A stretch of DNA of 64,000 bases from an uncultured bacterium. GTDB lineage: Bacteria; Verrucomicrobiota; Kiritimatiellia; RFP12; UBA1067. The position numbers and the translations under genes are program-made. This document shows, piece by piece, positions 10,370 through 48,825 of the stretch. The DNA lies in assembly GCA_902764415.1 (NCBI GenBank), contig CACWVU010000004.1, positions 15,758-79,757 of the forward strand, written 5' to 3'. The notes under the pieces were generated by a model. It searched no databases, was not told where the DNA came from, and was given only the letters and a program-made list of their open reading frames with translations. Within the stretch, counting starts at the first letter, position 1. Every line of letters starts with the position of its first letter.

Positions 10370-10430
10370 GTGATTTCCCTCTCCTTCTCAAGCAATTTGA
10401 AACATAGTATATCACAACCCCGATAATTTG

Positions 10431-10640: not shown

Positions 10641-11408
10641 CTATGGTTTTAAATGCTTTTGCTTCATTAGGTCACGCACCGAAGAATATCCTACTGATGA
10701 AACAACCAAGTGATCGATGAGTGGAATGCCAAGGTCTTTGGAGGTCGCCATTAGCTGACGCGTGGTCTCGATGTCGCCTTCGGATGGCGTGTGGTCACCG
10801 TTTGGATGGTTGTGGGCCACCACTATGCAGTGGGCATCCCATTTTATCGCTTCGCGAAAAACATCCCTCGGCATGACATAAGACGAGTTGGCCTGTCCAC
10901 GCGCAACCTTGATGGGCTCACAGATGGGAATTCGTTTGGCCGTCAAAGGCAGAACCCAGAAATTCTCAAGCACATCTCCTTCTTGCGCGATGAACTTGAA
11001 CACTTCGTATGCATCTTCGGCAGTTGCAACACGCATCTTCTTCAAATCGTCCGGTTTCACGCGAAGACGGCGATACCCGAGTTCAAATGCCGCTGCCAGT
11101 TCCAGCGCCTTGACCTTCCCAATGCCCTTGATAGGCGCTTCTGGGTTCTTTTTGTTGTAGTCAGATATCTTTGCGACAAGAGTACGCCAATCGGCGGTTA
11201 CAAGGTCTTGAATGCACCCAAACGCCCGGATGAGCCGTCTTGCGAGTTCCAAGACGTCACAGCCAGGCGCACCTGTCTTGAGCAGTATCGCAAGAACGGC
11301 CTCATCCTTTAGGTCGTGCGGACTCGCCGCACGCTCCATCTGCTCGCGCGGCAGGAGTTCGCTTGAAACTCCGTTCTTCTTGAAATTGCTTTCCCGCTTC
11401 TTGACCAT
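10641..11408 (-). CDS. radC: RadC-like JAB/MPN domain protein
   Basis: HNHPNGDHTPSEGD JAMM motif and an N-terminal helix-hairpin-helix region. Last gene of the island operon. Confidence 0.8.
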   Translation of the reverse strand: MVKKRESNFKKNGVSSELLPREQMERAASPHDLKDEAVLAILLKTGAPGCDVLELARRLIRAFGCIQDLVTADWRTLVAKISDYNKKNPEAPIKGIGKVKALELAAAFELGYRRLRVKPDDLKKMRVATAEDAYEVFKFIAQEGDVLENFWVLPLTAKRIPICEPIKVARGQANSSYVMPRDVFREAIKWDAHCIVVAHNHPNGDHTPSEGDIETTRQLMATSKDLGIPLIDHLVVSSVGYSSVRDLMKQKHLKP

Positions 11409-11409
11409 A

Positions 11410-12138
11410 TTATACCTCCTCCATCGGCATGGCTATAAAATCATTAAGTTCTTTCCGCAAAATCCTCCAGCGCGGCAATCGCCTGTCCATAAGCTCTACA
11501 AACGCTCTGGAGTGGTTCGACACCTCGAAATGCGTCAGCTCATGTACGACCACATACTCAATGCATCTTGCGGGCACTCTTCCAAGCGCGGCGTTGAAAA
11601 CGATCTTGCCGCGTTTCTTAAGACAACTCGCCCACCGAGTCTTCATCTTCCTAATTTCGGTTTCGGGAAGAGCAAGCTTCAACTTCCTGCACCATCCTTT
11701 CATCTTGCCCGCCAGAGACTCACCCAACATCGCCTTCTGCCATGATTCGACGATCCTCTCCTTATGCCCTCGTGAAGCGCCCTCCCGCACGTACAACGAC
11801 AACTTGTTGCCGCCCCACGTCACCTTTTCCGTCGCATAACGATCTTCCACGACAACCAATAGTTTATACCGGCGGCCAAGACAATAAATGCTCTCTCCGC
11901 TCACATACTCCCGACGCGTCTGGCGAGGCTGGGAAAGAACAGTCTTCCGCTGGTCGCGTATCCAGCCAATCTTGGATGCAAGAAAACTTCTCAAATCGCG
12001 GTCGGAAAGATCATCTGGCGCAGAGACATGCACCCTGGCATCCGGCGGATAGATGGCAAGATGCGTGTGCTTGATCTTCTTTCGCTCGACTTCAATCTGT
12101 ATTCCGGCAACTATCATAGCATCACATCCACGGTTCAT
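11410..12138 (-). CDS. YgjP-like metal-dependent hydrolase (DUF45 / M48 family)
   Basis: HELTHFEVSNHS zinc-binding motif. Sits in the classic position downstream of hsdR. Confidence 0.75.
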   Translation of the reverse strand: MNRGCDAMIVAGIQIEVERKKIKHTHLAIYPPDARVHVSAPDDLSDRDLRSFLASKIGWIRDQRKTVLSQPRQTRREYVSGESIYCLGRRYKLLVVVEDRYATEKVTWGGNKLSLYVREGASRGHKERIVESWQKAMLGESLAGKMKGWCRKLKLALPETEIRKMKTRWASCLKKRGKIVFNAALGRVPARCIEYVVVHELTHFEVSNHSRAFVELMDRRLPRWRILRKELNDFIAMPMEEV

Positions 12139-15100
12139 CGCTCATATAGGAATCTGCATCGAACTCACCTTGGTGTTCGACGATCTGATATACGGTAAGG
12201 GGATTGAAGTCCGTGCCCTGAAGCGCATCTTCTATCGCCATCTCGACCTTTCGCCGGCGTATGGCGTTTCTTCGAAAGCCGGGCTTGGCGCTTGCTCCGA
12301 CAGCCTCGAAGACCTTGAGCGCAAGGTCAGCATCGCCGCCCAGGTTGTCGCACAGGCTACGCTTGGCCTCGGTGTCCAGGCGCGGATCTTCAACTGCCGT
12401 GTCGCCTTTCAGTTCCTTGCCCATCTTTGCGATTTCCGCAAGTAGCTTTCTGTATTCAATCTTCTCCTTGCGGTAGTCTTCGAGAAGCCTGTTAATGCGC
12501 TCAGAGAACTTGCGGTACTCGGCAGGGTTGGTCTCTTTCTTTCTGAAGATGTAGCGTCTGACGTTTGCCACAAGCGTTTCCGCGACGCCGCGTTCGCCCC
12601 CGACCTCGGACTCCACGTCGGGATCGACCGACCCTCCATCGTCTTTGTCGATTTTTATCAGATCGAGAAACGAAAGATCCTCGAGGTCGGCGAGTTTCAA
12701 CGCATGCTTGGCCGTGACGAAATTGTCGAGAAGCGATCGCATCTCGGCATCGTAGAGCTTGAGGTCCACGAAATCGCCGGCTCGCTTCATGATCGCCTCG
12801 CGCAGCATGTCGTAGTTGCGCACCTTCTCCTTTAGCGCAGCCGCCTCGGCGGGGGAGTAGCCGGCCTCGTCAGTTTCCTGCGCGATGTCGCTCCAAGCCC
12901 TTACCGCGGCGATGCAGGCCTGGTAGAAGTCTTCCCGCAGCTGCGAATCCCCGGGTCTCTGCGCTTCACCGCCAGGTTCTGCGCCTGGGCGCGTGCCGTT
13001 CTGCGCTTCGTCGCGTGCGATGAAGTAATCGCAATACTCATCGATCCCCTTCGGCGGCAGTACCGGTTCCGAAAGAATATCGCACCGTTCAAGAGCTGCT
13101 TCAAGCGCCTTGCGACCTTCTTCAAGCCGTCCCTTGAGGAGCCCCTCTACATCTTCTTTCTCAAAGTTCTTGAACGCGCCGTTGGTGTAGTCTTTGACTG
13201 CGCCCCTTATGCTCTCAAAGAGATGTTTGTAGTCGATGATGTAGCCATAGCGCTTTTTCTCCCCGTTTAGCCGGTTGACGCGGCAGATGGCCTGGAAAAG
13301 GTTGTGGTCTTCCATCTTCTTGTCGATGTAGAGATAGGTTGCGGGCGGCGCGTCAAAGCCGGTCAGCAGCTTGTCAACCACAATCAGCAGCTTCATCTTC
13401 GCCGGATGCTCGACAAACTCCTTCTTCGCCCATTCTTCGAAATCTTCGGGCGATTTTTCTCCGCGCATAGCAAGGTTCATCCTGTGCTTGTACTCGGCTT
13501 CGGTAAGCTGCTCGCCGGTGAACGCCTCGGCAAGACTTGGCTCGTCGCCACCGTAGCTCGTCACTACGGCGCAATGATCCTTCAGCGGCGAGAGAGCGTC
13601 GCTGAACATCGCCCAAAACCGATATGCCTGATACACCGACTCGCAAACCAGCATCGCATTGCCCCATCCGTCGCGGAGCGCTGGCTTGAGCCCCATGTCC
13701 ATGCAGATGTCGGTGACAATACGCTGTACGCGCTCTTTCGCCGAAAAGAGATTCTGCATCCGCGCCCAGCGCTTCTTCAGCTCTTCCTTCTTGGCGGGAA
13801 GAAGGTTCTTGGTCTTATGTTCGAAAATCGAGTCGAAAGTCACGTCTTCGGCGAGGTTCTGCTCGATGTCGCGCGCCTCATAGCGCAAATCAAGCACGAC
13901 GCCGTCCTCTACCGCCTCATCGAATTTGTAGGTGTGGATGAACGGCCCGAAATTGGCATAGCTCGTAAGCACTCCCTTCTCGCTTTTGAGAAGAGGCGTT
14001 CCCGTAAAGCCGATCAGCATTACATCTGGCCCCATGATCTTCTTCATCGCCAAGTTCATCACCCCGCCTTGCGTGCGGTGGCACTCGTCAACGAAAACGA
14101 AGATATCGCCCTTCGCCTTGAAGCCCAGCGGCAATTTCTCGGCAAGCTCCTTCAAATAAACCGCAGCCGACCTTTCACCCCGCAATCTGCGCTCGCGAGC
14201 ATCAAGCTTCTCCTTGGACCCATTCGCGCCAAATTTGTGAATCAGTGTTGTAATAAGCCGTTCACGCGATTTGTTCAACGTTGCTATCAAGTCGGCGCCA
14301 CTTGTCGCGCGATATGGCTTCTCGCCGGCCTCCTTGAAGCCGTTTGTAATCTGCTTGTCGAGTTCGTCGCGGTCGGTGATTATCACCACCCGCGCATCGG
14401 GGCGATGTTCCTTGATCCACTGCGCAAGCCAAACCATCGTAAGCGACTTGCCGGAGCCCTGCGAATGCCAGATGATGCCCGACTCCTTGCGCATGATGCG
14501 AGGCTTCGCCGCCTCCAGCGCAAAGAACTGTGCAGGTCGCATAACCTTCTTCACACCGCCGTCAAAGACGATGCCGTCGTGTATAAAGGCCAGCAACCGC
14601 TCCTTGTCAAGCATCTGTGCAAACGAGCGGTCAACGAGCGGCTTTATCTCCGCTTTGCTCCACCTCGGCACGGCGCACGGATTGCCACAAGGCTCTTTCC
14701 ACTTCAGCCAGTGTTTCTCAGGGGTGAGCGTCGTCGCATACTTCAGACCCTCAGATTCGTTGCCCGCCATCAGCAGCTGCGCAGCGGCAAAAAACGCCGG
14801 TATCTCCCCCTCTTGCTGATTGCGGTAGTTCTGGCGAATTCCCTCGGCCACGCTCACATTCGCCTTCTTTAGCTCGATCACGCAAAGGGCAATGCCATTC
14901 ACCCAGATCACGACATCAGGCCGGCGATGGCCGTTTGCCGCGACCTGCCGCCTTACAGTCACCTCCTCGGCTATGGAGAAGTTGTTTTCGAGCGGGTGTT
15001 GCCAGTCGATGAAATAAACCTGTTTCATCGGCTTCCCGGGCTCGGTCGCAATCGACATCGGGTATCTGAGGGTCAAATACACTTCTTTGTTTACGTTGTA

Positions 15101-15376
15101 GAGGTCGGCCTGGCCCGGGCATGCCATGCGCTTCGCGAGCTCGGCTATTGCACGGTCGGCACATGCGGGCTCTAGCTTTTGCTTGCAGACAAGGAACTCC
15201 TTCAGCGCCTGGCGGTCAAGGCAAGAATTCTCTCTTTCCGAAAGATCGCCCAGATAATCATAGCCAAGCTTTGTTCGCAATAGTCCAATGATGCGATCTT
15301 GAACCGCTCGTTCGGAGGCAACCACAGCGCCCGCGCCGTGGAACGAAACCTCGCCTTCAACCTTATCGTTTTGCAT
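12122..15376 (-). CDS. hsdR: type I restriction enzyme R subunit
   Basis: HsdR_N-like N-terminus, SF2 helicase motifs (GSGKSLT, FVDECHRTQGG), 1084 aa. Confidence 0.9.
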   Translation of the reverse strand: MQNDKVEGEVSFHGAGAVVASERAVQDRIIGLLRTKLGYDYLGDLSERENSCLDRQALKEFLVCKQKLEPACADRAIAELAKRMACPGQADLYNVNKEVYLTLRYPMSIATEPGKPMKQVYFIDWQHPLENNFSIAEEVTVRRQVAANGHRRPDVVIWVNGIALCVIELKKANVSVAEGIRQNYRNQQEGEIPAFFAAAQLLMAGNESEGLKYATTLTPEKHWLKWKEPCGNPCAVPRWSKAEIKPLVDRSFAQMLDKERLLAFIHDGIVFDGGVKKVMRPAQFFALEAAKPRIMRKESGIIWHSQGSGKSLTMVWLAQWIKEHRPDARVVIITDRDELDKQITNGFKEAGEKPYRATSGADLIATLNKSRERLITTLIHKFGANGSKEKLDARERRLRGERSAAVYLKELAEKLPLGFKAKGDIFVFVDECHRTQGGVMNLAMKKIMGPDVMLIGFTGTPLLKSEKGVLTSYANFGPFIHTYKFDEAVEDGVVLDLRYEARDIEQNLAEDVTFDSIFEHKTKNLLPAKKEELKKRWARMQNLFSAKERVQRIVTDICMDMGLKPALRDGWGNAMLVCESVYQAYRFWAMFSDALSPLKDHCAVVTSYGGDEPSLAEAFTGEQLTEAEYKHRMNLAMRGEKSPEDFEEWAKKEFVEHPAKMKLLIVVDKLLTGFDAPPATYLYIDKKMEDHNLFQAICRVNRLNGEKKRYGYIIDYKHLFESIRGAVKDYTNGAFKNFEKEDVEGLLKGRLEEGRKALEAALERCDILSEPVLPPKGIDEYCDYFIARDEAQNGTRPGAEPGGEAQRPGDSQLREDFYQACIAAVRAWSDIAQETDEAGYSPAEAAALKEKVRNYDMLREAIMKRAGDFVDLKLYDAEMRSLLDNFVTAKHALKLADLEDLSFLDLIKIDKDDGGSVDPDVESEVGGERGVAETLVANVRRYIFRKKETNPAEYRKFSERINRLLEDYRKEKIEYRKLLAEIAKMGKELKGDTAVEDPRLDTEAKRSLCDNLGGDADLALKVFEAVGASAKPGFRRNAIRRRKVEMAIEDALQGTDFNPLTVYQIVEHQGEFDADSYMSDEPWM
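12955..13022. repeat. GC-rich 22-24-bp tandem repeat (GTTCTGCGCYTSGSCGCGTGC x3), in-frame inside hsdR
   Basis: Same repeat family as 16015-16112 and 16276-16322. Encodes ...GAEPGGEAQRPGDSQ... Confidence 0.7.
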
Positions 15377-15389
15377 CTCTTCTCCTCCC

Positions 15390-16700
15390 TTAACTAACTG
15401 CTTGCGCCACCGCCTCGTCGATGCCGCTCAACACTGCTCCTTTGTAATCGATTTCAACCGCGCCATCATCGGCAATCAGCTGGGCAATGCGGTTTAAAAC
15501 CTGCGCCTCGTGGCGCGTCATTGCTTTCTCGCCCGGCACATACGGCCAGCCAATCGGCGCGAGCATCAGCAAATTGCCCGCCGCACACGTTTCAAATAGC
15601 TTGCCGCCCGGCTTGTAGAGCGGCGAAAAGCCCTTGTTCTGCAATGTTATCACGCGGTGCCCCGCCTCGAAGGCGCGGCGGGCGATCTCGCGCTCGCCAT
15701 GGCTGATGCATGGGCTAAGCAACACCGCGCCCTGCGCCGCCGCGCGCATGGCGGCGGTCGCCTTTTCCTCAAATTCAGGTGTTGATTTTTCCACCATCGG
15801 CTTGCCGGCGGAATCGCGGCAAATTTGCCAACCACTCGGCAACCGCCGCCGCTTGTAGGCGAAGAAAGAGCGCGAGCATTGAATCTGGCAAATAATCGGC
15901 CGCGTCAAAAGAAAGTGGTTGCCAATCGCCATAAAATGCCCCTTCGCCGGGCCGCGCCAGGGGGGAATACCGGCTCGCTCGCGAGCCGACGCAGAACCAG
16001 CCTCGCCCCAACCGGGGTTCTGCGCTTGGGCGCGCGTGCTGTCCTGCGCTTCGCCGCGCGCACGGTTCTGCGCTTCGCCGCACGTGGGGTCCTGCGCTTC
16101 GCCGCGCGCGGCGAAGTCAACCTCAATATCGCGTGCCACCTTGAAAAGTTCTAGGCAAGCCCGCTTGATGCCCAAGCGCCGCGGGTTGGCACGAATGTAG
16201 GCAATCATCTTTTCAAGCTGCCCCGCGCGAAATAGTATCAAATCAACATACCCAGGCGCCCATAACCCTACCGCCATGTTCTGCGCTTGGGCGCGTGCGT
16301 GTCCTGCGCTTGGGCGCGTGTTCCAAAGTTCCCCCGCGCGGCTTGTACTTTTCGACTTGAAGCTGCCGATGATATTGCCAAGTTTTTTCTTCTGCTGCTC
16401 CTTCACGAAGATGATGCCATGAAAATGATCGGGCATCAGCTGGCTTTCAATCACTTCAACCCCTGGCCACTGCTGAGGAATCTCGCGCCAGCATTGCTCG
16501 ACAATCAACCCGATCTCGCTTGGCTCAACCCGCCACTCCTCGCCCTCGCCGACAAGCCGCCCCAAAGCCGGCCGCGACCGATCGGCCAGCGTGATCGTGA
16601 TCATGTAAATGCAGCGCGAGGAATAGTCCCAGTTGAAGCACCGCCGTCCCATGTGGTGCTTCACCTCCTGCCTCACTTCGCTCTTATGTTTAGCGGTCAT
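15390..16700 (-). CDS. RayT/IS200-like HUH Y1 transposase domain fused to an unknown C-terminal domain, interrupted by in-frame repeats
   Basis: HuH motif MPDHFHGIIF plus LWAPGYVDLILF...YIRANPRRLG (the RayT 'W..F.DH.I...Y..NP..GL' pattern). Unknown C-terminal domain of about 200 aa. Repeat-encoded RAQAQN/GEAQD stretches. Confidence 0.6.
   Translation of the reverse strand: MTAKHKSEVRQEVKHHMGRRCFNWDYSSRCIYMITITLADRSRPALGRLVGEGEEWRVEPSEIGLIVEQCWREIPQQWPGVEVIESQLMPDHFHGIIFVKEQQKKKLGNIIGSFKSKSTSRAGELWNTRPSAGHARAQAQNMAVGLWAPGYVDLILFRAGQLEKMIAYIRANPRRLGIKRACLELFKVARDIEVDFAARGEAQDPTCGEAQNRARGEAQDSTRAQAQNPGWGEAGSASARERAGIPPWRGPAKGHFMAIGNHFLLTRPIICQIQCSRSFFAYKRRRLPSGWQICRDSAGKPMVEKSTPEFEEKATAAMRAAAQGAVLLSPCISHGEREIARRAFEAGHRVITLQNKGFSPLYKPGGKLFETCAAGNLLMLAPIGWPYVPGEKAMTRHEAQVLNRIAQLIADDGAVEIDYKGAVLSGIDEAVAQAVS
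16015..16112. repeat. GC-rich 24-bp tandem repeat x4 inside the RayT-like gene
   Basis: GGTTCTGCGCTTGGGCGCGCGTGC-type units, in frame. Confidence 0.75.
16276..16322. repeat. GC-rich 24-bp tandem repeat x2 inside the RayT-like gene (between the HuH and Tyr motifs)
   Basis: ATGTTCTGCGCTTGGGCGCGTGCGTGTCCTGCGCTTGGGCGCGTG. Confidence 0.75.
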
Positions 16701-16717
16701 GGATTGCCTCGAAACTT

Positions 16718-19700
16718 TTATGACTGAGTTGTGTTTACCTGAATCTTGCCATCAGCTTTTTCGCTAGTGGAAGACACAATACCTTTCCCTTTTAGAAACT
16801 CGATGAAAGCCCCGACACCTTCCCATTTTGAAATCTGGGGATGACACCCGAGTTCTCCAAGTCTATTATATGGCTCTGACATTCTCCTTAACCGATTGCG
16901 TATTTCATCGGTGTCGCCACCAAGATGCTGGATGATCTTACACTGCAATGTCGCCAAACTTAGCTTCCCAACAACCGCATCGAGTATCGCCTCATCAAAC
17001 TGTGTGTAGTTTCCAACATTGATGTAAGACGCGACACCAATAATTAAATCTTCATTGCCGAGTACAACATCTTTAAGCGTGTTGGCAACCATCGGTATGT
17101 TACGACGCGAAATCTTGTCAGGCGCAAAAAGTTTCTTGACATCATCCCTGTTTGCCATACCGTCAGAATACTCATTGCAAAACTCATTTATAAACATTGC
17201 CGCATAAACAATGTGAGAATCATTGCCTATATCACGAAGAGCCTGATACAGCTCATTTGAATACTTAATACGATTACCTTTCGCAAGATACTCAATTCGC
17301 TTGGGCGTCGCATTTGCTCCTGAATATCTTGATATAACGCCTTTACTCATACCTGACAAGAGGCCATTCATTGCGTCATCTGACAATTGCACTTCTTCTG
17401 CCAATCGCTTTGCCAAATTCTCATCTTCCTCCCACGCTATACCGCGCGAATTCTTCTGAGATAAAACCGAATAACAATCTATGTCATTTACATACTCCCA
17501 GAACAAGGTCTCGTCATCTGTGTTTCTATTCCACACCTCAGCTGCGTTATTCCATGTTGGCACAAGCCACTTGAGTCTTATACAAAGAGCAAGCGCCCTA
17601 TCCGACACGAGCTTCTTTGCGTCATCAATTCTACCTTGTTTTGATTGTTTCTCCACGAAACGAGTTATGTCATCCTCGCCCAAATCATCACGGTTGAAAA
17701 CAAAAGCAATATTCTCAATAGAATCTTCCTGCTGCGACTCCAATTGCAAATACACATTGTCAAGATACGTTTTAAACTCTCTGTCCACATAGTCAACAAG
17801 TTGCTTGATTCCACAACTATTAATCACCGAATAGTTCTTCTTCTCAAAATCGCTCACATCAATCCCTTTGGCGTTCAATATCTCCTTCAGCATATTTGCA
17901 TCAAGTAAATATGCGCATTCAGATATGACAACCTCAATAAATCCAGTCTCTTGCGCCAATTTAAAGTCAAGCACTTCGAACTTCAAGTCAAACTGCCTCA
18001 CAAAAGCTGTCATAGTCTCTACATCGTTAATCCCATTGTCTCGCAGCAACTGCGGCATGGCCGCTGTCTGCTCCACATACTCTTTTACAATGTTAGACGG
18101 AACAACAGCTTTCTCCTGTCGCATTGTCCACGCGACATACAGCCCCAATTGCTTTTCAATAAACTCGCGTGGCCAGCCGTCTCCCGAAACTGAAGTCTCT
18201 ATCAACTCTGCCATGTAGTTCGGAGTTGCCGACATGATGCAGTCAAACAACTTTCTTGCATCGTCTCCCTTTGCCACTTCCGTAAGATATCCATCTACAA
18301 ACTCATAACTTCTCAAATCCTTTTTGGAAATTAGTTGCCAAAATTCCTTTGCCTTCTCACTCTCGGGGCTTGTCAAAAGTTCGCGGCAAATGTCATAGTT
18401 CGGCATAGATGGAGTCGAGAAATAATGCAGCTCAAGACTTTCAATTAGCGCCCTAGGATTTTTGAGTTTGGTTTTCCAATCAGCATCATCGCCTCGCGTA
18501 ACACCAACTTCAAAAAGGTAATCCTGAATAGAATTAACTCCGTCAACCTCATGGAAGATCGAAATGTTGTAATAATACTTTTCGTTGAGATAGCCATTCT
18601 TCAACAAGAGAATCACAAGTTCTGCATCTTGCCGATCTTCGCTGCTTTCCTGAATGATTACCTTAATCTCATCATCTTTCAAGACGCCTTCTACCATTAA
18701 TTCCTGAATCGTTTTATGCTTGATAGTTAGGCGACGTTCCTTTAGGACCTGAATTTCCTGTTTGATCTTTTCAATACGCCCATTTTGATGCGACTCAATT
18801 CGTTTGACGTGTTCATCGTATGTACAGTTAGGGTCTGTCTTCTTTTCGATATCCGCCCATTTTATCGGGCGATTTCCATACGAACCTCCTGAAAATCCAT
18901 TTCTGCGCAACACCTCAAACCAATTATCATAGTAGAGTATCGCCGAGGCAAACCTTTGTTCTCCCTGAATATGCACATAGGCGTTGTGAGGATCAAACTC
19001 TCGCATCAATGTAGCATAATACAACAATTGCAATTGTTGAATGTCCGTCAACTTTTCCCCATTGATGCAATCAATCTCATGTTTCAAATTGCTAATCTTA
19101 TCATCAATATCTTTTGCCAACCTTTCCTGGGCTTCTTTTTTCTTCTCAAGGAACTTCCACATCATACCTCTTTCATCATGCATGAGGGCAAAATCCTTGG
19201 GAAAGAAGTTTTTGAACACAACAAGTCCCAAGAGTTCTTGCTCAGAGGTATAATCGATTACTTGCTCTCTGTAAGTGTAATATTCATTGCAAATGTTCTT
19301 GAGAAGCCGCATATCCGAGATGTACGGCGAAACCACCTTTACAAATCTTACCAATGTCTCATCTGGCTTAGTGTCGCTCCAGTCATTGAGAAACGCCAAC
19401 AACTCCGTGCGTGAATTAGATGCATTTATTCGCGGAATGATCGGAATAACAAAATCAAAGAATTTCACTTTGCTCTTTTCATCTTCAAACAGTTCTTCCC
19501 GAAGCGCATATATAAATCTTATAGGTTTTTTCTTGACACTTATCTGATGGGAATTGTTCAGAAGTAGATTTAGCTCCCGCAACTTCGTGAAGATACATAA
19601 ATCATTAAATCTATCGATGTCCTCAAAAACAACTATAGAACATTTTGAGGCAGAAAAGAAATTAATGATTGTCCTTATGTTACGGTTAAGCATAGAACAT

Positions 19701-21585: not shown

Positions 21586-21615
21586 AGTTAGTCGGTTCCA
21601 TAGCGTAGTTCAAGA

Positions 21616-22623
21616 TTATTCATAACAAGCTGGCCGATGTCCTCGCGCCCAGACCCAGTTATTAGAATGGTCTGCTCCAATGGTGTTTACAATGGTAATA
21701 GTACTAGACTCAATTTGATGCTTTGATAGGAACTTATAGATCGTTTTTACGTCATCCTCCGTAATAACACAACCCCCAATAACACGTATCAGGTCAAAGC
21801 CTGCGCTTGTTAGAGAAAATGTATGCACCCACAGTACGCCTCCGGTTATTCTAAGCCTAGACACACCATCACTTAATCTAATCGTCAACTCTTCTGATCC
21901 TTCAAGTGGATTCATCTTTGCCGCCGACTGAAGGTTACTCATCAAGCCAAGTTCTTGAAATCGTACGATGTCGTCATACGAACCAAATATTGGCCTGTTA
22001 TCATAGCTGACAATCAATTCGCCGCCAATCGCTCCTCTACACAGATTGGCAAAACACATGCAATCGTTCTTTGACAGGTTCTTAACAACATCTAACGTTC
22101 GCATCGAGATTCGATTAGGCTGCACGACCTCTTCTTTCAAGAGCCCTGCCCACCACTGACGAAGTTCATTATCGTCAATCATTTCCGCCTCTCGACGCCA
22201 ACGATTGAAAAAAGTCTGTGATATCGGTTCATCAGAAATTTCTTCGGATGGGACTGTAGATATCTGTCGTATTGCCTCTTCCATGGCTGCCTGTAAGCGA
22301 CGTGCGTCTGACATATGGTTTAGTGTATGCAAAGCATCATAGGCATCCACAACCGTAACAGGTGCAGGGCAATCCAGCAATTGACCTTCTCTGTAAACTT
22401 TTATACCGTTTCTTACGTCAGTACAGTCTTTTTCTGTCTGCGCTTGAATCAACGCTACAGCCCGTTCGTTCTTAGCGATCCATTTGCCAAACAAAGCTTT
22501 TAGCAACTTGCCTAACCCTTTATTGGACGACGACACAACATCGGCTGTCGCCTGAACCAATGGCGTAGCATCAGCACTCACATCTGCATTAACATTTCCT
22601 TGCACTGGAATTGTCGCTCTCAT
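21616..22623 (-). CDS. hypothetical protein (335 aa); possible DUF2806 / Abi-like
   Basis: Segment ...FFNRWRREAEMIDDNELRQWWAGLLKEEVVQPNRISMRTLDVVKNL... resembles the DUF2806 family as I recall it, with low certainty. 3-nt gap after hsdS. Confidence 0.55.
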   Translation of the reverse strand: MRATIPVQGNVNADVSADATPLVQATADVVSSSNKGLGKLLKALFGKWIAKNERAVALIQAQTEKDCTDVRNGIKVYREGQLLDCPAPVTVVDAYDALHTLNHMSDARRLQAAMEEAIRQISTVPSEEISDEPISQTFFNRWRREAEMIDDNELRQWWAGLLKEEVVQPNRISMRTLDVVKNLSKNDCMCFANLCRGAIGGELIVSYDNRPIFGSYDDIVRFQELGLMSNLQSAAKMNPLEGSEELTIRLSDGVSRLRITGGVLWVHTFSLTSAGFDLIRVIGGCVITEDDVKTIYKFLSKHQIESSTITIVNTIGADHSNNWVWARGHRPACYE

Positions 22624-22626
22624 GTC

Positions 22627-23997
22627 TTATTCTCCTTTCAACCTTGTCTTACCCGTCAGCAGTTCCTGCATCATGCCGGATTTGATGCGCTCGTATTTCG
22701 CACAGTCGGCCTCAAGCGCCGCAATCTCCGCATCCATGTCTGATACCACCGCCCCAATCGCCTTCTGCTCGGCAAGAGTGGGGAAAGCAAACGCCAACCC
22801 TTCAATATCCTTTGCATTCAAATTGTTGATTGCCGACCCAGTAAGGATATCATCCAACTGCCGCCGGTAACTCTGTGATTGAAGCAGATATCCCACAAAG
22901 CATGAATCAACACTTTTTACACATCGAAATACAGCCATAAAAGCACCAAAAGTAGCTACCTCCGCTTTATGCCATACTGCCGCCTTACCAACAAGGTTTC
23001 TACTGCCGTTTGCGGCACAAATGAGTATATCCCCTTCAGTCAACTGCTGACAACCTGCTATACACTCATTCATCACATACAAAACATCATGGCAAATGAT
23101 CTGGTTGTCTTGAATATTATTAGCTCTAAGTAGCACTGTGGCGTTTGGCATTAACGTAAGTGATGATTGCTCTGGCCTGAAACTAACACCTCTAATCGAT
23201 TCACCGATCCCTCCCAGCCGCTTCACCTCCCAATCCACGGGAATGGGGCCAAGTTCAGTCTGCTTGAACTCGGCGCGTGCTGCGCCAAACCCCGGCAGGC
23301 GGGTTTTGCCGGTGAGGAGCTGCTGCATTGCACCAGTCTTGATGTTACGCTTTTTCTCGATGAGTTTCCCCAACGCCGAAATCAACTCATCGACATCCGA
23401 CAACGCCCTCGCGATCCTCCGCTGCTCGGCGAGAGGGGGAAGAGGGATTTCACTTCGCGAAAGATCGCCTATACTTATACTTGCTTGGTTAATAGCTATT
23501 TTAGCCAGCTCGCGTGCCTTGCTCCTCATGGGGGATGATGAAAGAGCATAATACAAATAGTTTGCATTGGCACTTTCGTTACACCGCAAGAGCAGAAGAT
23601 TCATCCCATGATATAACAGCTCCTTGCCATCATATAATGCAACATTCCCAATGTATGGCAAACTATTTATGTGGCTAAACAGGATATCACCGTTGCTCAA
23701 CATATAATCAGCGGGCGGCGCATCTTTTACATAACCAACGCGAGAATAATTCACAACGCCTTTTGAGATTGTCTCAATTCGAGAAATCTTATAAGAGCCA
23801 CGATTACACACCGAATAAGTAAATCCATTTTTTATTCGTGTGCAACATTCCCCCAGCCGCTTCACCTCCCAATCCACGGGAATGGGGCCGAGTTCGGTCA
23901 TCTTGAACTCTGCGCTCTCAGCGGTCTCTGCGTGAGGTTTTTCCCCGCCCGTAGCATTAGAACCGAGTTCAGCCTTTCTTGATTTCGGCGGCTTCAT
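22627..23997 (-). CDS. hsdS: type I restriction-modification specificity subunit
   Basis: Two target-recognition domains, each preceded by the conserved repeat ...TELGPIPVDWEVKRLGE... Confidence 0.9.
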   Translation of the reverse strand: MKPPKSRKAELGSNATGGEKPHAETAESAEFKMTELGPIPVDWEVKRLGECCTRIKNGFTYSVCNRGSYKISRIETISKGVVNYSRVGYVKDAPPADYMLSNGDILFSHINSLPYIGNVALYDGKELLYHGMNLLLLRCNESANANYLYYALSSSPMRSKARELAKIAINQASISIGDLSRSEIPLPPLAEQRRIARALSDVDELISALGKLIEKKRNIKTGAMQQLLTGKTRLPGFGAARAEFKQTELGPIPVDWEVKRLGGIGESIRGVSFRPEQSSLTLMPNATVLLRANNIQDNQIICHDVLYVMNECIAGCQQLTEGDILICAANGSRNLVGKAAVWHKAEVATFGAFMAVFRCVKSVDSCFVGYLLQSQSYRRQLDDILTGSAINNLNAKDIEGLAFAFPTLAEQKAIGAVVSDMDAEIAALEADCAKYERIKSGMMQELLTGKTRLKGE

Positions 23998-25076
23998 TCA
24001 CCCTCCTTTCCGCGCTCGCCCTTCTCCTTCTTGATCTCTTCTTCGAGCGCGAGGAGGTAGCGGTCGTAGTCGCTCATGAAGAGCCGGTCTTGCACGATGC
24101 GGTATTTCTCGAACTCGTTTTCAGCATGTTCTTCCGCAATTGCGGCGGTCACATTCTCGACCTGTTCAATCGTAATCGGTCCGTCCCAAATCGCCACAAA
24201 CTTGTCGAGGCGCCTCTCCCACGCCTCCATCGTCATAGGGATATGCCGAAGCGCGGCATTCTCCGCAAATTCCAGGTAGGCATTGACAAGCCTCTCAAGC
24301 ATTCCAAGTTCATCTTCGGTCAAGTAGTTCTTGGCAATGACTACGTCGCTCTTGCGAATCTTTCCATTGGGCGAAGCCGCCCAGCTACTCAGCCCCATGT
24401 GCTCCTTCGCCGCGTCGGCACGCGAAAAGATGATTTGGGCTGCCGTAAGGCCGTTGACAGCTTGGTGCATCTTGTTCTGGACTGTCGCAAAGAATCTCCG
24501 TGTCCGAAGTGCCTTGCTGTCATAGTCGATGGCAGTCGCGTAGATGTCCGTCACCTTCTGATAGAACTTACGCTCGCTCAGGCGTATTTCTCGAATATCT
24601 TCAAGGAGACGTTCAAAATATTGATTTGAAATCGGAGAACCATCCTTCATTCGAGGCTTGTCGAGAACATAGCCACGAATCGTGTACTGTGAAACGATCT
24701 GGTTGGCCCACTTTCTGAACTGCACCGCCCGCTCGTTATCTATCTTGAAGCCAAGAGCGATTATAACTTGCAAGTTGTAGTGGTTTACACGGTAGTTCTT
24801 GCCGTTGTCGGCAACTATTAAAATTTCTTTAATAGTTGACGCCTTATCAAGCTCGGCGTCTTCGTACAATTTCCGCAAATGGTAGGCGATGTTCGGCACC
24901 TCCACGCCATACACCGCCGCGAGCATTTTCTGGCTCATCCAGATATTCTCGTCTTCGTAGCGTATTTCATACCGCTCGTCGACAGCACCGACAGAGGCAA
25001 TGTAAGTAATGAACTGGGCCGCGCTCGACTTCTGAGGCTCCATGTTGTCCCAATTGCTCTTTTTCTTCTTTGCCAT
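23994..25076 (-). CDS. RhuM-family protein (often embedded in type I RM loci)
   Basis: N-terminal ...IWMSQKMLAAVYGVEVPNIAYHLRKLYEDAEL... is typical of RhuM. 4-nt overlap with hsdS. Confidence 0.65.
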   Translation of the reverse strand: MAKKKKSNWDNMEPQKSSAAQFITYIASVGAVDERYEIRYEDENIWMSQKMLAAVYGVEVPNIAYHLRKLYEDAELDKASTIKEILIVADNGKNYRVNHYNLQVIIALGFKIDNERAVQFRKWANQIVSQYTIRGYVLDKPRMKDGSPISNQYFERLLEDIREIRLSERKFYQKVTDIYATAIDYDSKALRTRRFFATVQNKMHQAVNGLTAAQIIFSRADAAKEHMGLSSWAASPNGKIRKSDVVIAKNYLTEDELGMLERLVNAYLEFAENAALRHIPMTMEAWERRLDKFVAIWDGPITIEQVENVTAAIAEEHAENEFEKYRIVQDRLFMSDYDRYLLALEEEIKKEKGERGKEGE

Positions 25077-25087
25077 TGGCTGCCTCC

Positions 25088-27421
25088 TTACGGTTTAGCG
25101 ACCTTCGCCACTATCCCCATCTCTACGAGGTGCGCCATTACCTTTCCGCGCAGGGCGGCGACATCGGCCTCGAGCGATGCGAGCGGCCTGTCGTAGCGTT
25201 CAGCGAGTGCCTTTACCTCTGCGGCGATTTGCGAGAGCGTGCGGTCAAGCTCTGCGTCGAAACGGCGGTGTAGTTCCTCTGCCCACTTGTGATGAACGAC
25301 GAGAGTCTTTACATCATCTCCTGTAAGTTCCTCGTAGATGCTCTCGATCTCCCATGCAAAGCGCCTGTCGTCCTCGCGCAGATCTTTCTTGAATAACGCT
25401 ATGCTTTTCTTTAGCTTTTCGACCTCTTCGGGCATTTCATCATCTTCGCCAAGCCCTTCGGTCAATTCGGCGAATTGCGATTCAAGGCCTTCAAGCTCTT
25501 CGACGCGCTCCAAATAGCTCTCGTATGTTTTTGCGCACCGCCCTTTTGCCACGACTTCAGGCGGCAAAAGGTCGCACTGAAGGTCGCGCCAGCCATACGA
25601 TTTCTTCTTGGGTTTTACGAGCCTGGCCTGCCAGCCATCGCGGCAGATAAGATAGCAATCATCTTGCATAGTCTCCGCCCAGTAGTTCATCAGATGTTCG
25701 TATAGGGCGTAGGGGGATGCCAGAGATTGGCTCGCACGCGAGCCAGCGCAGGACAACGCGGGCTGGCGCAAAAGTTCTTCGCCCCATTCTGCGATAATTT
25801 TCTTTGGCTCGGCACCGCGCTTGAGGCCAAGCGCCTTGCGCGTAAAATCGCCAAGCCACCGCGCACAGGCGTTCTCAAACGCATCTATCTGCCCGGCCAT
25901 TTCATCACCCTCTCGCAATTCGCCAACAATCTCTTCCTTGGGCAACGCGAGCTTTACAAAGCCCTTGCGAAGCGGCTTAAAGAGACACGCTGGGTATTTC
26001 GCCGCCTCGTCGACCGGGATACCACCCTTTAGATGGGATGTAAGATTCTGCCGAACTTCCTTGTCGGATGGTGCGACATAGCGCGGTATGTTGAGGTTGT
26101 AGTCGTTTGCCTCAATGTCGGCATACTTCACGAACTGCGCGTAGTGTGGCACGTTCTCGCCGGCGTTCCAGACGTCGACAATGCGCCTTACGTCGCTTTC
26201 GCGCAAGCGGTTCTTCGCGCCATCTTTGGCAAAACCATCTTTGGCATCGATCATAAAGACACCCTTCGATGCCGTCGCGCCTGCTTTATCGAGCACTATG
26301 ATGCAGGCGGGGATGCCCGTGCCGAAGAAAAGGTTTGGTGGCAACCCGATGATGCCCTTTATCCAATGGTGGCGCACGATGTACTTGCGTATCTCCGCCT
26401 CGGCGTTGCCACGGAACAAAACGCCATGCGGCAGAATGACGGCGGCGCGTCCGCTCGGTTTCATCGACTTCAGGATGTGCAGCAAGAAGGCATAGTCGCC
26501 GCACTTCGGCGGTGGCATGGGCGCGACCCCCTCGCCATGCCCCCAGCGCCCGAAGCGATCCTCTTCGCTCGCGCCCTTGAGCCAGCTCTTGACGGAGAAC
26601 GGAGGATTGGCAACGACATAGTCGAACGTGCAAAGCTCGCGGTCGTTGCGCTTGTGCAGGGGATCGGTCAACGTGTCGCCGTGCCTGAGGTCTGGATCGT
26701 CCACGCCATGTACGACCATCGACATGCGCGCCATGCCGATTGTGGCCACGTCCTTTTCCTGGCCTTGTATGGCGACACCCCCTTTCGCCTCCGCCGCCGC
26801 GCGAAGAAGAAGCGACCCGGACCCGCAAGTCGGATCGTAGATCGAAATCATCCTGCGCTTGTCGTCGCCGATGCCGATCACCTTCGCCATTACGCGGCTA
26901 ACTTCGGCGGGGGTGTAGAACTGCCCCTTCGACTTGCCCGACTGCGTGGCGAAGTTTTTCATCAGGTACTCGTATGCGTCGCCGATCAGGTCGTCGTCGG
27001 CAGCGCGGTTGTTAGAGAAGTCGAGGTCTTCGTCCTGGAACACGCCGATGAGTCCGCTCACCGTGTCGACGAGGTCCTTGCCCTTGCCAAGCTTCGTCTC
27101 GTCCGCGAAGTCGGCGTTGTTGACAACGCCTTCAAGGTCGTTCGCGGAGGCGATCTTGGCGAGGATCACATTCACCTTCTCGCCAATGTCCTTGCTGCCC
27201 TTGAGCTGGACAAGGTCGTCAAAGCTGCAGCCCTTCGGTAGTTCTATCAAGAGCGACTTGTCGCCCGATTTCTTCTTGTCGCTCAGGTACTTGATGAACA
27301 GCACCACCAGCACATAGTCCTTGTACTGGCTCGCGTCCATTCCGCCGCGCAGTTCGTCGCATGCTTCCCAGAGCTTTGAATATAGCTGTGATTTCTTAAT
27401 TGCCATCGCTGATACCTCCAC
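25088..27421 (-). CDS. hsdM: type I RM N6-adenine DNA methyltransferase subunit with a long coiled-coil C-terminal extension
   Basis: HsdM_N-like N-terminus, SAM motif, VVANPPFSVKSW (NPPF). 777 aa. Confidence 0.9.
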   Translation of the reverse strand: MEVSAMAIKKSQLYSKLWEACDELRGGMDASQYKDYVLVVLFIKYLSDKKKSGDKSLLIELPKGCSFDDLVQLKGSKDIGEKVNVILAKIASANDLEGVVNNADFADETKLGKGKDLVDTVSGLIGVFQDEDLDFSNNRAADDDLIGDAYEYLMKNFATQSGKSKGQFYTPAEVSRVMAKVIGIGDDKRRMISIYDPTCGSGSLLLRAAAEAKGGVAIQGQEKDVATIGMARMSMVVHGVDDPDLRHGDTLTDPLHKRNDRELCTFDYVVANPPFSVKSWLKGASEEDRFGRWGHGEGVAPMPPPKCGDYAFLLHILKSMKPSGRAAVILPHGVLFRGNAEAEIRKYIVRHHWIKGIIGLPPNLFFGTGIPACIIVLDKAGATASKGVFMIDAKDGFAKDGAKNRLRESDVRRIVDVWNAGENVPHYAQFVKYADIEANDYNLNIPRYVAPSDKEVRQNLTSHLKGGIPVDEAAKYPACLFKPLRKGFVKLALPKEEIVGELREGDEMAGQIDAFENACARWLGDFTRKALGLKRGAEPKKIIAEWGEELLRQPALSCAGSRASQSLASPYALYEHLMNYWAETMQDDCYLICRDGWQARLVKPKKKSYGWRDLQCDLLPPEVVAKGRCAKTYESYLERVEELEGLESQFAELTEGLGEDDEMPEEVEKLKKSIALFKKDLREDDRRFAWEIESIYEELTGDDVKTLVVHHKWAEELHRRFDAELDRTLSQIAAEVKALAERYDRPLASLEADVAALRGKVMAHLVEMGIVAKVAKP

Positions 27422-29144
27422 CGCTTACAGTTTGGGTAAACTGTATTGATACTTCCATGAGATTTCTCTTAAGCTCCCGCTTCAACCTCTTGATTCTCTC
27501 AAGACGCTCACGTACCGCCGATGCCACCTCTCTCGCCTTGTCACTTGCGGCCATTGGAACCGGAAGCTGCAACAGCTTCTTCACGGAAAGCGTCTGCTGA
27601 AGTCCGCTGCTTAGGCGCTTCAGCCACTTCGCACCCTCGGCATCTTCAAAATAGCCCTTAAGAAAATAGGGATCAACACCGATTGGGCGACAGACGAACA
27701 AGTTGCCATCTACGACGTAGATCTTGTTCGGTTCGTCAACCACGGCGCATTTGAATGGTGCGCCAGAACGGGAAATCACCAAATCACCCACCTTAGCCAC
27801 AAAACTTTCGCACCCGTCTGGAATCGCCGAAAGCTTCGACACCTCGTCTTCTATTACGCCGTCGGTTATGCTCTTCGGCGTCAAGTAACATATACCTGGG
27901 CTAGAGTCAGGCGGCAGAAGCAGCCTATCTAACGCTTCCTTCGGCATGACAACGCCACGACGGATCTCCTGAACCAACTCGCCAAGCGGACGCTGTCGCT
28001 CTGACTGCGAAGGTTCGGCAAGATAAACCGCAGGGTCTAGTTCGCCGTCGCGTTTGAGAATCTGGTCCTTGCTCCTCGTCACTATATCCCCGAAATTAGC
28101 AAGGTTTGCGAGATCCTTGACTATTCTCGAGATATTGAAGTTAATCCCGGATACATCGTATTGATCAGAACCGGCCACATCAAAAAGCTTCGTAGAATAG
28201 CACCCCTTCCTAAACGTCACGATAGCTATCGCAATAGACGTGCCTGGATAGACGCCTTCTGGAAACGCCACAACGCCTTCAATCATTCCACGAGCCACGA
28301 AATAGCGTCTGTACGATGCACTTTGAGCACTGCTCAATGCGGCACGTGGCATGATGACTACAGCCCGACCGCCCTCTTTCAATGCAGAAACCGCCTGTGC
28401 AGCAAAAAACCATTCAGAGGAAACAAGCGAAATCTGCGGGAAATCTGGAAATGCTTCTACGAGCGACTGCCTAACACTATTGAAATTAAGTTCACGAACA
28501 TTCAAACCAAACGGCGCATCACAATGTACCTTGTCGAATTTCGCTCGCCTTAAGAGCTTGGGATCGAAGCAGTCGGCCACATGAACCTTCCCATGCGTTC
28601 CGCGAATGAGCGCAATCAGGCCTGCATAACGAGCAATATTTTTATCAAATTCTACGCCAACAATCTCAAATGACTTGTTGTCATTCAGGGCATGGCCATA
28701 TTGCATCCACGCCATATTGACAAAAAAACCAGCGCCAGCACAAAGATCAAGACAAGCATCTCCCGGATGGATGTCAAGTAAAGCAAGCGATAGCGCATCT
28801 AACCTAACCGAATAGTTGACCTTGATATGTATTCGCTTCACATAGTATGTCTCAAAAAGGTCAACCGCATCATCCTCGGAAACCCTCCCGGCCAATTCGT
28901 AGTATTCATTCCAATGTGCGCCAATCGCAGAAACGATAGAATCCAGACAAGGCTTTGGAACATTGCAACTTGAAAGAAAACCGTCCAGGTCAGCGATGTC
29001 AGCTGACATTCCAATATGTCTAGCCCAAAGGCACAAAACCGTTAAGCCACACACCTCGTTGAACAGAGTATCCAATGCATACTTCCGCTCAATGCGATGT
29101 ATGATTTCTCCAATAATCAATATATCTTCTCTCCTGTTTTTCAT
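27396..29144 (-). CDS. second N6-adenine methyltransferase fused to a single HsdS-like target-recognition domain
   Basis: Motif I LDLCAGAGFF, motif IV-like CDAPFG, C-terminal TRD plus the conserved HsdS helix (KKLLQLPVPMAASDKAREVASAVRERLERIKRLK). The ATG at 29142-29144 is preferred over the track's TTG. 26-nt overlap with hsdM. Confidence 0.65.
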   Translation of the reverse strand: MKNRREDILIIGEIIHRIERKYALDTLFNEVCGLTVLCLWARHIGMSADIADLDGFLSSCNVPKPCLDSIVSAIGAHWNEYYELAGRVSEDDAVDLFETYYVKRIHIKVNYSVRLDALSLALLDIHPGDACLDLCAGAGFFVNMAWMQYGHALNDNKSFEIVGVEFDKNIARYAGLIALIRGTHGKVHVADCFDPKLLRRAKFDKVHCDAPFGLNVRELNFNSVRQSLVEAFPDFPQISLVSSEWFFAAQAVSALKEGGRAVVIMPRAALSSAQSASYRRYFVARGMIEGVVAFPEGVYPGTSIAIAIVTFRKGCYSTKLFDVAGSDQYDVSGINFNISRIVKDLANLANFGDIVTRSKDQILKRDGELDPAVYLAEPSQSERQRPLGELVQEIRRGVVMPKEALDRLLLPPDSSPGICYLTPKSITDGVIEDEVSKLSAIPDGCESFVAKVGDLVISRSGAPFKCAVVDEPNKIYVVDGNLFVCRPIGVDPYFLKGYFEDAEGAKWLKRLSSGLQQTLSVKKLLQLPVPMAASDKAREVASAVRERLERIKRLKRELKRNLMEVSIQFTQTVSGGGISDGN

Positions 29145-29160
29145 AATTAATTTTGCGCGT

Positions 29161-29169
29161 ATTATAGCA
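29161..29169 (-). promoter_or_regulatory. extended -10 TGCTATAATACGCG, candidate promoter of the 11-gene island operon
   Basis: About 16 nt upstream of the ATG of the MTase-TRD gene. No SD. Confidence 0.45.
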
Positions 29170-29393
29170 TATTGGCCGCACTGTGTCAAATCGGTATCTT
29201 AATACCAAATACAATGGTAGTAAAATCCTTTGCTTGCCCGTCTCAAACATACTCAATATGATATGGATTAGGTGGCCCATCAGTAACACGCGAAAGTCGG
29301 TCCAAGACCCGTGCCCTTCCGTGGAAAGGGCATGCCTAAGCCTCTATACAATACTGCCGCGAGACGGCAAAATATCACGCAAAAAATGGCGGA

Positions 29394-48747: not shown

Positions 48748-48825
<78 letters not shown>

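Follow-up and report, generated by a model that had tools for sequence, protein, structure and literature searches.

The stretch of DNA analyzed here (hereafter the window) comprises 64,000 nucleotides of contig CACWVU010000004.1, from an uncultured bacterium of the Kiritimatiellia class within the Verrucomicrobiota phylum. Our subject is an eleven-gene operon on its minus strand, which encodes a Type I restriction-modification (R-M) system and opens with g1, a gene whose product joins a methyltransferase (MTase) domain to a single target-recognition domain (TRD). The G+C content of the window is ~67-68% and drops to 39-60% at ~9.1-31.8 kb, which identifies this stretch as a foreign island; its genes have their closest relatives in metagenomes of rumen and gut and in metagenome-assembled genomes (MAGs) of Kiritimatiellia. 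The eleven open reading frames (ORFs) extend from position 29144 down to 10641 (18.5 kb), with successive junctions from g1 to g11 of -11, +11, -4, +3, +30, -4, +17, +13, -17 and +1 nt, negative values denoting overlaps. A preliminary description of the same sequence had proposed this packing together with a single upstream promoter bearing an extended -10 element, and both proposals hold: all eleven ORFs were recovered, with junctions between -17 and +30 nt, and the promoter matches the consensus at 12 of 12 positions, its hexamers being kept in four sister loci. All support for the regulatory role that we propose below for g1 is computational. The coordinates of the features are collected in Table 1.

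The operon promoter, which also has the TG of the extended -10 element, is the top sigma70-like site of the region. Its -35 and extended -10 elements are invariant in the sister loci L001, L007, L008 and L013, where g1 is ~85% identical, while the flanks no longer align; that these elements stay invariant as the surrounding DNA diverges argues for a functional promoter. The ATG of g1 lies 16 nt past the -10 element and is not preceded by a Shine-Dalgarno sequence. Terminator-like hairpins show no enrichment (12 vs 19.4 expected), and the junctions are too tight to accommodate terminators between genes. Sites resembling promoters somewhat exceed expectation (29 vs 18.3 +/- 3.5 expected), mostly in the AT-rich g5-g7 segment, and one such site has its end at 21615, 30 nt ahead of the start of g6. 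Taken together, these features make a single transcript across the eleven genes plausible. As an observation in its own right, the segment comprising the -10 element and the initial transcribed region, at 29145-29172 (ATATGCTATAATACGCGCAAAATTAATT), is 82% identical to positions 31766-31793 (ATATGGTATAATACGCGTAAATAAAATT), upstream of the host MscS gene; both carry an extended -10, and the likeness could reflect a shared promoter type or a duplicated segment.

Next to this promoter lies a palindrome of the form GGTA-N6-TACC, a pattern that occurs once in the 64 kb (0.18 expected), accompanied by a degenerate second copy whose spacing is that seen in L002, L004 and L009, which carry two full palindromes. 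In a survey of 12 related loci that extend upstream of g1 (10-22 kb each), all 12 had GGTA-N6-TACC, as a single copy or as two copies spaced 23-24 nt apart. The copies are confined to the interval 62-102 nt ahead of g1 and have invariant arms and a variable spacer. A distant clade of g1, with 25-30% identity, also heads Type I gene sets, in genomes named Collinsella, Olsenella, Butyrivibrio, Oribacterium, Eubacterium, Lachnobacterium, Succinimonas and Oscillospiraceae, and in two 'viral' contigs, hosts which we take to span several phyla. In this clade, 30/30 loci carry one to three copies of GGTT-N6-AACC at the promoter, mostly as GGTTA-N4-TAACC, with one copy enclosing the -35 TTGACA and another between the -10 element and the ribosome-binding site (RBS). 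Overall, a palindrome stands at the promoter in 42/42 loci, in a clade-specific form. The presence of the same sites in hosts of several phyla implies that their reader must travel with the operon, and g1 is the sole gene always found next to them. By analogy, a symmetric site with arms of 4-5 bp placed about one helical turn apart has the format of a target for a half-S dimer, that is, for a protein of the HsdS type with one TRD per chain.

The architecture of g1 fits such a reader. Pfam recognizes only an N6_Mtase domain (aa 133-334), PADLOC models of Type I specificity subunits match at aa 429-581, and a nuclease domain is absent. The AlphaFold (AF2) model, a monomer built from 22 homologues (predicted local distance difference test, pLDDT, of 85), resolves into a helical HsdM-like N-domain, an MTase fold, a TRD (aa ~384-530) and a 41-residue C-terminal helix (aa 534-574). 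The MTase-like domain, single HsdS-type TRD and long C-terminal helix, without a nuclease, that had been read from the sequence alone are thus supported by both the profile matches and the model. Its top fold match in the PDB is 7EEW_A (E = 6e-21), an M-S1/2 'minimal intact methyltransferase' from a Type I system of Vibrio vulnificus YJ016 (Seo et al. 2022, as cited in PMC12429846), followed at lower rank by BpuSI, CamA, M.BseCI and M.TaqI; at the sequence level the similarity to 7EEW is marginal (profile E = 2e-5). Judging from the model, g1 has an architecture of an already known kind, the M-S1/2 fusion, and fusions of the M-1/2S type, whether natural or engineered, form dimers that recognize palindromic bipartite sites (PMC12429846; PMC6158711). 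The M-tail helix is absent from the g1 model, in which just short helices (338-347, 359-364 and 371-375) separate the catalytic domain from the TRD. The N-terminal 115 aa gave no helix-turn-helix (HTH) family match at E <= 10, and no small regulator ORF upstream of g1 is conserved in the sister loci compared; the likeness of g1 to controllers of the C-protein or RptR type would therefore lie in its proposed role and not in an HTH fold.

The catalytic site of g1 is partly preserved. It retains motif I (D133..G137xG139F), motif II (E165) and motif III (D191), and the 'FxTP' motif that lies upstream of motif I in the gamma class is missing. The preliminary description had credited g1 with motifs I and IV; motif I stands, and motif IV has a deviant form that reads D-A-P-F (aa 209-212) in place of the canonical (N/D)PP(F/Y/W). 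In the clade of the window it takes the form [D/T/S/E][A/S/T]PF, with a first residue that varies among relatives at ~50% divergence and is drawn from many amino acids in the family at large, and across 120 full-length representatives 4 are canonical, 39 follow (N/D)xP(F/Y/W) and 76 fit neither pattern. The form D/N-x-P-F is reminiscent of N-[IL]-P-Y, found in active adenine methylases of the Erm/KsgA type. These residues bear directly on an alternative in which g1 is an active (M-S1/2)2 adenine MTase that adds a second symmetric Type I specificity and recruits HsdR, two motifs being restricted; the promoter site would then be incidental, or would serve as an AhdI-style attenuation site of an otherwise genome-wide enzyme. 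Such an enzyme would share its architecture with 7EEW, would conform to the conservation of motifs I, II and III and to the low ratio of nonsynonymous to synonymous substitution rates (omega) of the MTase domain (0.06-0.12), and would agree with the distant clade, which retains N-Y-P-[FW] and GE.xTPE motifs; an engineered M-1/2S fusion is indeed active and restricts with HsdR (PMC6158711). It is harder to reconcile with a motif IV that is canonical in 4/120 representatives and variable in its first residue, with the loss of FxTP and the absence of the M-tail helix, and with the absence of the motif from the rest of the 64 kb, though just 0.18 copies are expected there.

The evolution of the TRD points the same way. 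A search with the TRD and helix as query (E <= 1e-10, clusters at 50% identity) yielded at least 240 clusters, nearly all of 560-600 aa and with the TRD at a constant place. Mean pairwise identity among the 120 representatives is 37.6% in the TRD, 28.4% in the MTase domain and 16% in the N-terminus; between clades the TRD is 29-33% identical vs 22-27% for the MTase domain, and within the distant clade 47-53% vs 34-40%. Among the sister loci, the g1 TRD is 87-90% identical and HsdM 85-91%, while HsdS has dropped to 35-46%. A conserved g1 TRD beside a diverged HsdS is the opposite of how a restriction specificity behaves, since this would be expected to vary in the manner of the neighbouring HsdS, and we consider the active, second-specificity enzyme an unlikely, still credible, account; in its favour, a recognition site wired into the promoter could alone yield the conservation of the TRD. 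The ratio of nonsynonymous to synonymous rates (dN/dS) of g1 is ~0.1 in every domain, a sign of strong purifying selection, which indicates that the gene is functional, and g1 always adjoins Type I genes in the loci compared. A half-site common to the g1 TRD and the TRDs of the operon's HsdS was considered and rejected, their similarity not being meaningful beyond the conserved helix. The preliminary description had taken g1 for a second, self-contained specificity layered onto the canonical set, a claim rendered doubtful by the non-canonical motif IV (4/120), the over-conserved TRD and the palindrome at its own promoter; on these sequence grounds, a second methylation specificity is probably the wrong reading of g1.

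The fold of g1 also suggests a role as a decoy or guard against anti-restriction proteins, in which a catalytically weak M-S1/2 dimer would offer a DNA-binding groove that soaks up or senses phage DNA mimics such as Ocr and ArdA, protecting or backing up the real HsdM2S, and the promoter palindrome is bound by something else. The nearest solved structure, 7EEW, was crystallised with Ocr on its TRD, the catalytic motifs of g1 are eroded with the fold kept, and a sensor could serve the abortive-infection-type cargo of the operon. Nothing in the sequence points to mimic binding, however, and any Type I MTase binds Ocr; the decoy would moreover leave two observations unexplained, namely a clade-specific palindrome in 42/42 loci and a TRD, instead of the general DNA-binding groove, as the most conserved part of the protein. 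We judge this role to be highly unlikely.

Considering this evidence together, we put the chances about even that g1 is a built-in, site-specific autoregulator of the operon, with or without methyl transfer, and not a second restriction specificity. The proposed mechanism would be as follows. The operon, horizontally acquired, would serve as a scaffold for swappable defence cargo and be read from one strong sigma70-type promoter; HsdM2-HsdS would methylate its target, and HsdR would join to restrict unmethylated DNA. The g1 protein would form a dimer by way of its C-terminal helix, in the manner of half-S proteins, and this dimer would recognize the GGTA-N6-TACC that abuts the -35 element of its own promoter. 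Occupancy of this site by g1, and possibly its methylation, would feed back on transcription of the whole operon. From the sequence patterns, we infer that g1 is the binder of the palindrome and that its binding would repress transcription. The position of g1 as the first gene, together with its conserved 11-nt overlap with hsdM, would fit a controller whose synthesis comes first and keeps pace with that of the methylase.

Several points weigh against this proposal. A 14-bp palindrome with 5-bp arms would also suit an ordinary HTH dimer. Since g1 is without the M-tail helix, which completes the four-helix bundle in 7EEW and M2S, its dimerisation is not assured. With motifs I-III intact and a D/N-x-P-F of Erm/KsgA type, g1 may still methylate and may also mark the chromosome. 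In the clade of the window the palindrome is centred at about -45.5, upstream of the -35 element, a position compatible with activation as well as with repression. The correlation between clade and site amounts to a single evolutionary change (GGTAT to GGTTA), and is therefore suggestive and weak as covariation. Finally, a true DNA binder of the distant clade could be the product of another gene: in that clade (L014-L042, L054, L055), a conserved ORF of ~175 aa always follows the g1-like gene and is 38-82% identical between genera (for example, L025 11368-11907 and L031 11361-11888). This ORF has no Pfam match and no counterpart in the window, and it is also a possible partner of the distant-clade M-S1/2 protein.

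Extending the autoregulator proposal from the operon to the family, we suggest, more tentatively, that g1 represents a widespread unannotated class of R-M controllers in which catalysis is largely lost, binding of S-adenosylmethionine (SAM) is kept and the TRD binds promoter operators. If so, the retained SAM pocket raises the prospect that operator binding depends on SAM, and in that case, as pure speculation, phage enzymes that counter restriction by degrading SAM would lift repression from the whole island, abortive-infection cargo included.

Table 1. Positions of the operon genes and promoter elements within the window.
Feature	Coordinates	Strand	Remarks
Degenerate second copy of the palindrome, AGGATTTTACTACC	29216-29229	.	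23 nt further upstream
14-bp palindrome, GGTATTAAGATACC (GGTA-N6-TACC), putative operator	29193..29206	.	Ends 3 nt upstream of the -35 element
Operon promoter	29161..29189	-	-35 TTGACA 29189-29184; 17-nt spacer; extended -10 TGcTATAAT 29169-29161
g1, HsdM-half-HsdS (M-S1/2) fusion, 582 aa	27396..29144	-	N6_Mtase, one HsdS-type TRD, C-terminal helix
g2, HsdM, 772 aa	25088..27406	-	PF12161 (HsdM_N) and PF02384 (N6_Mtase, 4.5e-98); TIGR00497 above cut-off
g3, RhuM family, slot A	23994..25076	-	PADLOC candidate PDC-S05
g4, HsdS, two TRDs	22627..23997	-	Two Methylase_S stretches; PADLOC Specificity_I PDLC03098 full-length, 2.4e-98
g5, DUF2806, first low-G+C cargo gene of slot B	21616..22623	-	Homologue in slot B of L002
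g6, 402 aa	20377..21585	-	No family detected
g7, YobI-like/KAP-type P-loop NTPase, 1220 aa	16718..20380	-	PF20693 7.2e-83; PADLOC Tmn 1.6e-66
g8, IS200/RAYT-type HUH protein, 436 aa	15390..16700	-	HUH motif DHFHG and Tyr motif AYIRANP, both conserved
g9, HsdR, 1084 aa	12122..15376	-	HSDR_N, SWI2_SNF2/ResIII, T1R_D3-like, T1RH-like_C
g10, YgjP-like metallopeptidase	11410..12138	-	Overlaps hsdR by 17 nt
g11, RadC-like JAB protein, last gene	10641..11408	-	Follows YgjP in L048/L049 too

By their domain content, g2, g4 and g9 form a complete Type I R-M system. The motifs of HsdM are canonical (GQFYTP, DPTCGSG and NPPF), and its most likely start is the ATG at 27406, with a GTG at 27421 as the alternative; the 11-nt overlap with g1 is kept in relatives. 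Solved HsdM structures align to aa 1-456 only, leaving a tail of ~315 aa (aa 457-772) that is common to many 'type I M protein' sequences at ~30% identity, with the PADLOC model MTase_I PDLC03027 covering to aa 675 and weak coiled-coil-type matches restricted to the last ~150 aa. An 'unusual coiled-coil tail of ~250 aa' had been attributed to this protein: the tail itself is real, its length is ~315 aa, the weak coiled-coil signal concerns the last ~150 aa only, and the feature belongs to a widespread subfamily. Three long-tail HsdM operons that we examined (L051, L052, L053) are without g1, which makes the tail a subfamily trait and no peculiarity of this locus; for the same reason, we dropped the idea that the tail is necessarily there to bundle with the g1 helix. 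In each of these three operons, hsdM is split into two or three ORFs (e.g. 374+440 aa), probably an artefact of a search that favoured short fragments; alternatively, the gene may be frameshifted or phase-variable. Within hsdS, a 64-nt direct repeat (23213-23276 and 23852-23915, 92% identity) encodes the leader of each TRD (FK.TELGPIPVDWEVKRLG) and could be a substrate for TRD shuffling. The pairing of YgjP with HsdR recurs in L048, L052 and L053, YgjP being a frequent downstream partner of this HsdR type.

Comparison of the sister loci L001, L002, L007, L008, L013 and L048/49 revealed a shared layout, g1 - hsdM - [slot A] - hsdS - [slot B] - g8 - hsdR - ygjP - radC, with variable contents in the two slots. 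Slot A contains RhuM, or Fic/HTH, or RhuM together with TIR and a 510-aa protein, and slot B contains DUF2806 with the 402-aa and YobI proteins, DUF2806 with a 288-aa protein, three proteins of 285, 388 and 331 aa, a 297-aa protein with KAP, or nothing. On gene content, a more apt description of the operon is a Type I system in which two slots accommodate exchangeable defence cargo, and defence genes embedded in Type I operons are a known phenomenon (PMC11411939; PMC12255303). In slot B of the window, g6 has no match in Pfam (even at E <= 10), NCBIfam, PADLOC or PHROGs and no homologue among the loci compared. The label 'KAP' given earlier to g7 agrees with its match to YobI/KAP-type NTPases and to PADLOC Tmn; its Walker A motif is GLYGAGKS, hydrophobic segments lie inside the NTPase domain, and the model match makes it a putative Tmn-type defence gene.

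This variability might also be taken to mean that the operon has no functional integration and is an accretion of independent defence genes, with g1 as an orphan-type methylase or a decaying hitch-hiker and the palindrome as the site of a host or mobile-element regulator. The G+C content is a mosaic that would suit such a history: g5, g6 and g7 stand at 0.447, 0.430 and 0.413 (0.41-0.45), g1 and hsdS at ~0.48 and hsdM, hsdR and g8 at 0.56-0.60 (0.48-0.60 for the hsd genes with g8), against 0.67-0.68 in the host. Cargo differs among sister loci, and in other places the long-HsdM Type I family functions in the absence of g1. A decaying hitch-hiker is difficult to square, however, with a dN/dS of ~0.1 and at least 240 clusters that share a fixed architecture of ~575 aa, or an unconnected one with the conserved 11-nt overlap with hsdM and the constant place of g1 beside Type I genes, and a host regulator cannot account for the same sites across several phyla. 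We therefore regard mere accretion as very improbable, and retain the view of the operon as a familiar kind of defence island, a Type I R-M system with cargo, in which the signatures of the g1 family point to control at the promoter.

Between slot B and hsdR, g8 is composed of an N-terminal HUH domain, a linker of in-frame GC-rich 24-nt repeats and a conserved C-terminal domain of ~190 aa. Profile searches matched ISDra2 TnpA, Y1_Tnp weakly, and the NCBIfam model REP_Tyr_transpos at 46.5 bits, under its cut-off of 80. The AF2 model (30-sequence alignment) is of low confidence (pLDDT 54), and its fold matches TnpA and 4ER8, a RAYT (a tyrosine transposase associated with repetitive extragenic palindromic, REP, sequences); these credible matches concern the N-terminal HUH part only, and from this low-confidence model the C-terminal domain has no credible fold match, although it may contain a Rossmann motif of DprA/SLOG-like type. 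The g8 family has more than 1300 clusters of 384-527 aa. Members at <=59% identity are located outside R-M loci, and the lineage found here is fixed just upstream of hsdR.

The repeats in g8 are not confined to that gene. A GC-rich in-frame unit of ~24 nt occurs at 16016-16109 and 16277-16320 in g8 and, in two copies, at 12976-13018 in hsdR, invariably oriented along the coding strand; one minus-strand example of the unit is GACTTCGCCGCGCGCGGCGAAGCGCAGGAC, which encodes DFAARGEAQD, and the unit contains a perfect 18-nt palindrome, TTCGCCGCGCGCGGCGAA, at 16096-16113. The repeat core is present in 8 copies in the window (0.21 expected), all of them in g8 and hsdR. In the homologous loci L048, L049, L050 and L007, the peptide unit appears at variable positions in the g8 and HsdR homologues and nowhere else; the HsdR proteins of L048 and L049 differ by one 14-aa unit, and g8 of L050 has seven tandem copies. 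Variable copy number of the repeats would account for the length range of the g8 family. The units look like REP-type elements seeded into the ORF of the RayT-like gene itself and into its neighbour.

The operon is flanked by two cassettes, each with a gene for an AAA_14/DUF4143 ATPase. On one side, a perfect 61-nt direct repeat (9032-9092 and 10507-10567), which duplicates the 3' end of a plus-strand DUF1318 gene, brackets a 1.4-kb cassette with a single ATPase gene (9140-10369) and no recombinase; it looks like a site-specific insertion that regenerates the end of its target gene. Just upstream of this ATPase gene, at 10426-10476, a 23-nt unit, ATTTGTCTATTAGGAATCCGAGG, is exactly duplicated in tandem (2.2 copies) and may be an operator or a recombination site. 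On the other side, the second DUF4143 gene (29394-30725) is bracketed by a 28-nt repeat (29388-29415 and 30895-30922, 82% identity) that matches the 3' end of the neighbouring MscS gene, the spacing being 1507 nt vs 1475 nt for the first cassette. Thus, 2/2 DUF4143 genes in the window reside in such cassettes, and AAA_14 genes are also present beside the g1 operons of L004-L006. A composite-transposon pair was rejected, the two ATPases being just 23% identical to each other. An inverted repeat located upstream of the second DUF4143 gene, GGGTATT-N7-AATACCC (30795-30825, minus strand), has arms that resemble those of the g1 operator (GGTAT/ATACC) with a longer spacer, which may be a coincidence. 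Just past the MscS gene, near the high-G+C edge of the island, there is a 37-nt inverted repeat (31819-31855 and 32016-32052, 86% complementary, 160 nt apart). Rfam gave no match at the gathering threshold in 8500-32500, and tRNA-linked integration was rejected because the sole tRNA, at 48749, is far from the island.

Transcriptional control of Type I systems is poorly understood, and in the classical view restriction is alleviated post-translationally; to our knowledge, RptR, described in 2025, was the first dedicated Type I repressor. If g1-type proteins are controllers, a large family annotated as 'N-6 DNA methylase' is being misread in methylome and REBASE-style predictions, since a second motif is predicted that does not exist. 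The specificity module of an R-M system would then have been recycled as a transcription factor, an undescribed mode of Type I control, and we know of no R-M controller before g1 that would derive from this part of the R-M machinery itself. For two clades, candidate operator sequences are already available. In addition, the two insertion slots are places to look for new anti-phage genes, with g6 and the DUF2806 gene as candidates.

Several elements of the operon have counterparts in known systems. Like the RAYT 4ER8, g8 has an IS200/IS605-type HUH fold, HUH and Tyr motifs and short GC-rich palindromic repeats nearby; unlike RAYTs, which are single-domain proteins of ~150 aa with extragenic REP/REPIN sequences, it has 436 aa and an extra C-terminal domain, and its repeats lie in frame within g8 and hsdR. 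Co-oriented defence genes between hsd genes are also found with TgvAB (Vibrio cholerae VPI-2, PMC11411939), DarTG2 (enteropathogenic Escherichia coli, EPEC; PMC12255303) and the PADLOC 'PDC' candidates; the present operon differs from those of TgvAB and DarTG2 in having two cargo slots, and its combination of DUF2806, the 402-aa gene and YobI/Tmn has not been described. As in PacII (M1M2S; PMC9613975), two different MTase-fold genes share one Type I operon; unlike g1, M1 and M2 of PacII are without TRDs, carry NPPF/NPPY and assemble on one S subunit, giving m6A plus m4C (PMC9613975).

For the role that we propose for g1, the literature searched, with incomplete coverage, contained no described regulator of the HsdM-HsdS fusion type, and the closest parallels are partial. 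RptR represses a Type I defence island in which a further defence module is embedded (PMC12255303), and g1 would share with it and with the C proteins of Type II systems (PMC2175313, PMC6237814) a regulator gene inside the island and repeated or palindromic sites at the promoter; those regulators are small HTH proteins, in contrast to the 582-aa methylase-TRD fusion of g1, with no detectable HTH. Like 7EEW, g1 is a single chain with an HsdM-type fold, one TRD and a conserved-region helix, encoded within a Type I operon, and by analogy it would be expected to dimerise and to read a symmetric bipartite site. It departs from 7EEW in having no long M-tail helix and a motif IV of DAPF in place of NPPF, in coexisting with a complete HsdM and a two-TRD HsdS in one operon, and in its TRD, which is conserved across phyla and accompanied by a palindrome of matching format in its own promoter. 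The M2S2 MTase of AhdI, which attenuates its own strong promoter through an AhdI site over the -10 element (PMC2275141), resembles g1 in its build of a Type I-like M with a half-size S and in the symmetric bipartite site at its own promoter; it differs in belonging to a Type II system whose C protein and endonuclease are separate, in having separate M and S subunits with canonical motifs, and in regulating by methylation.

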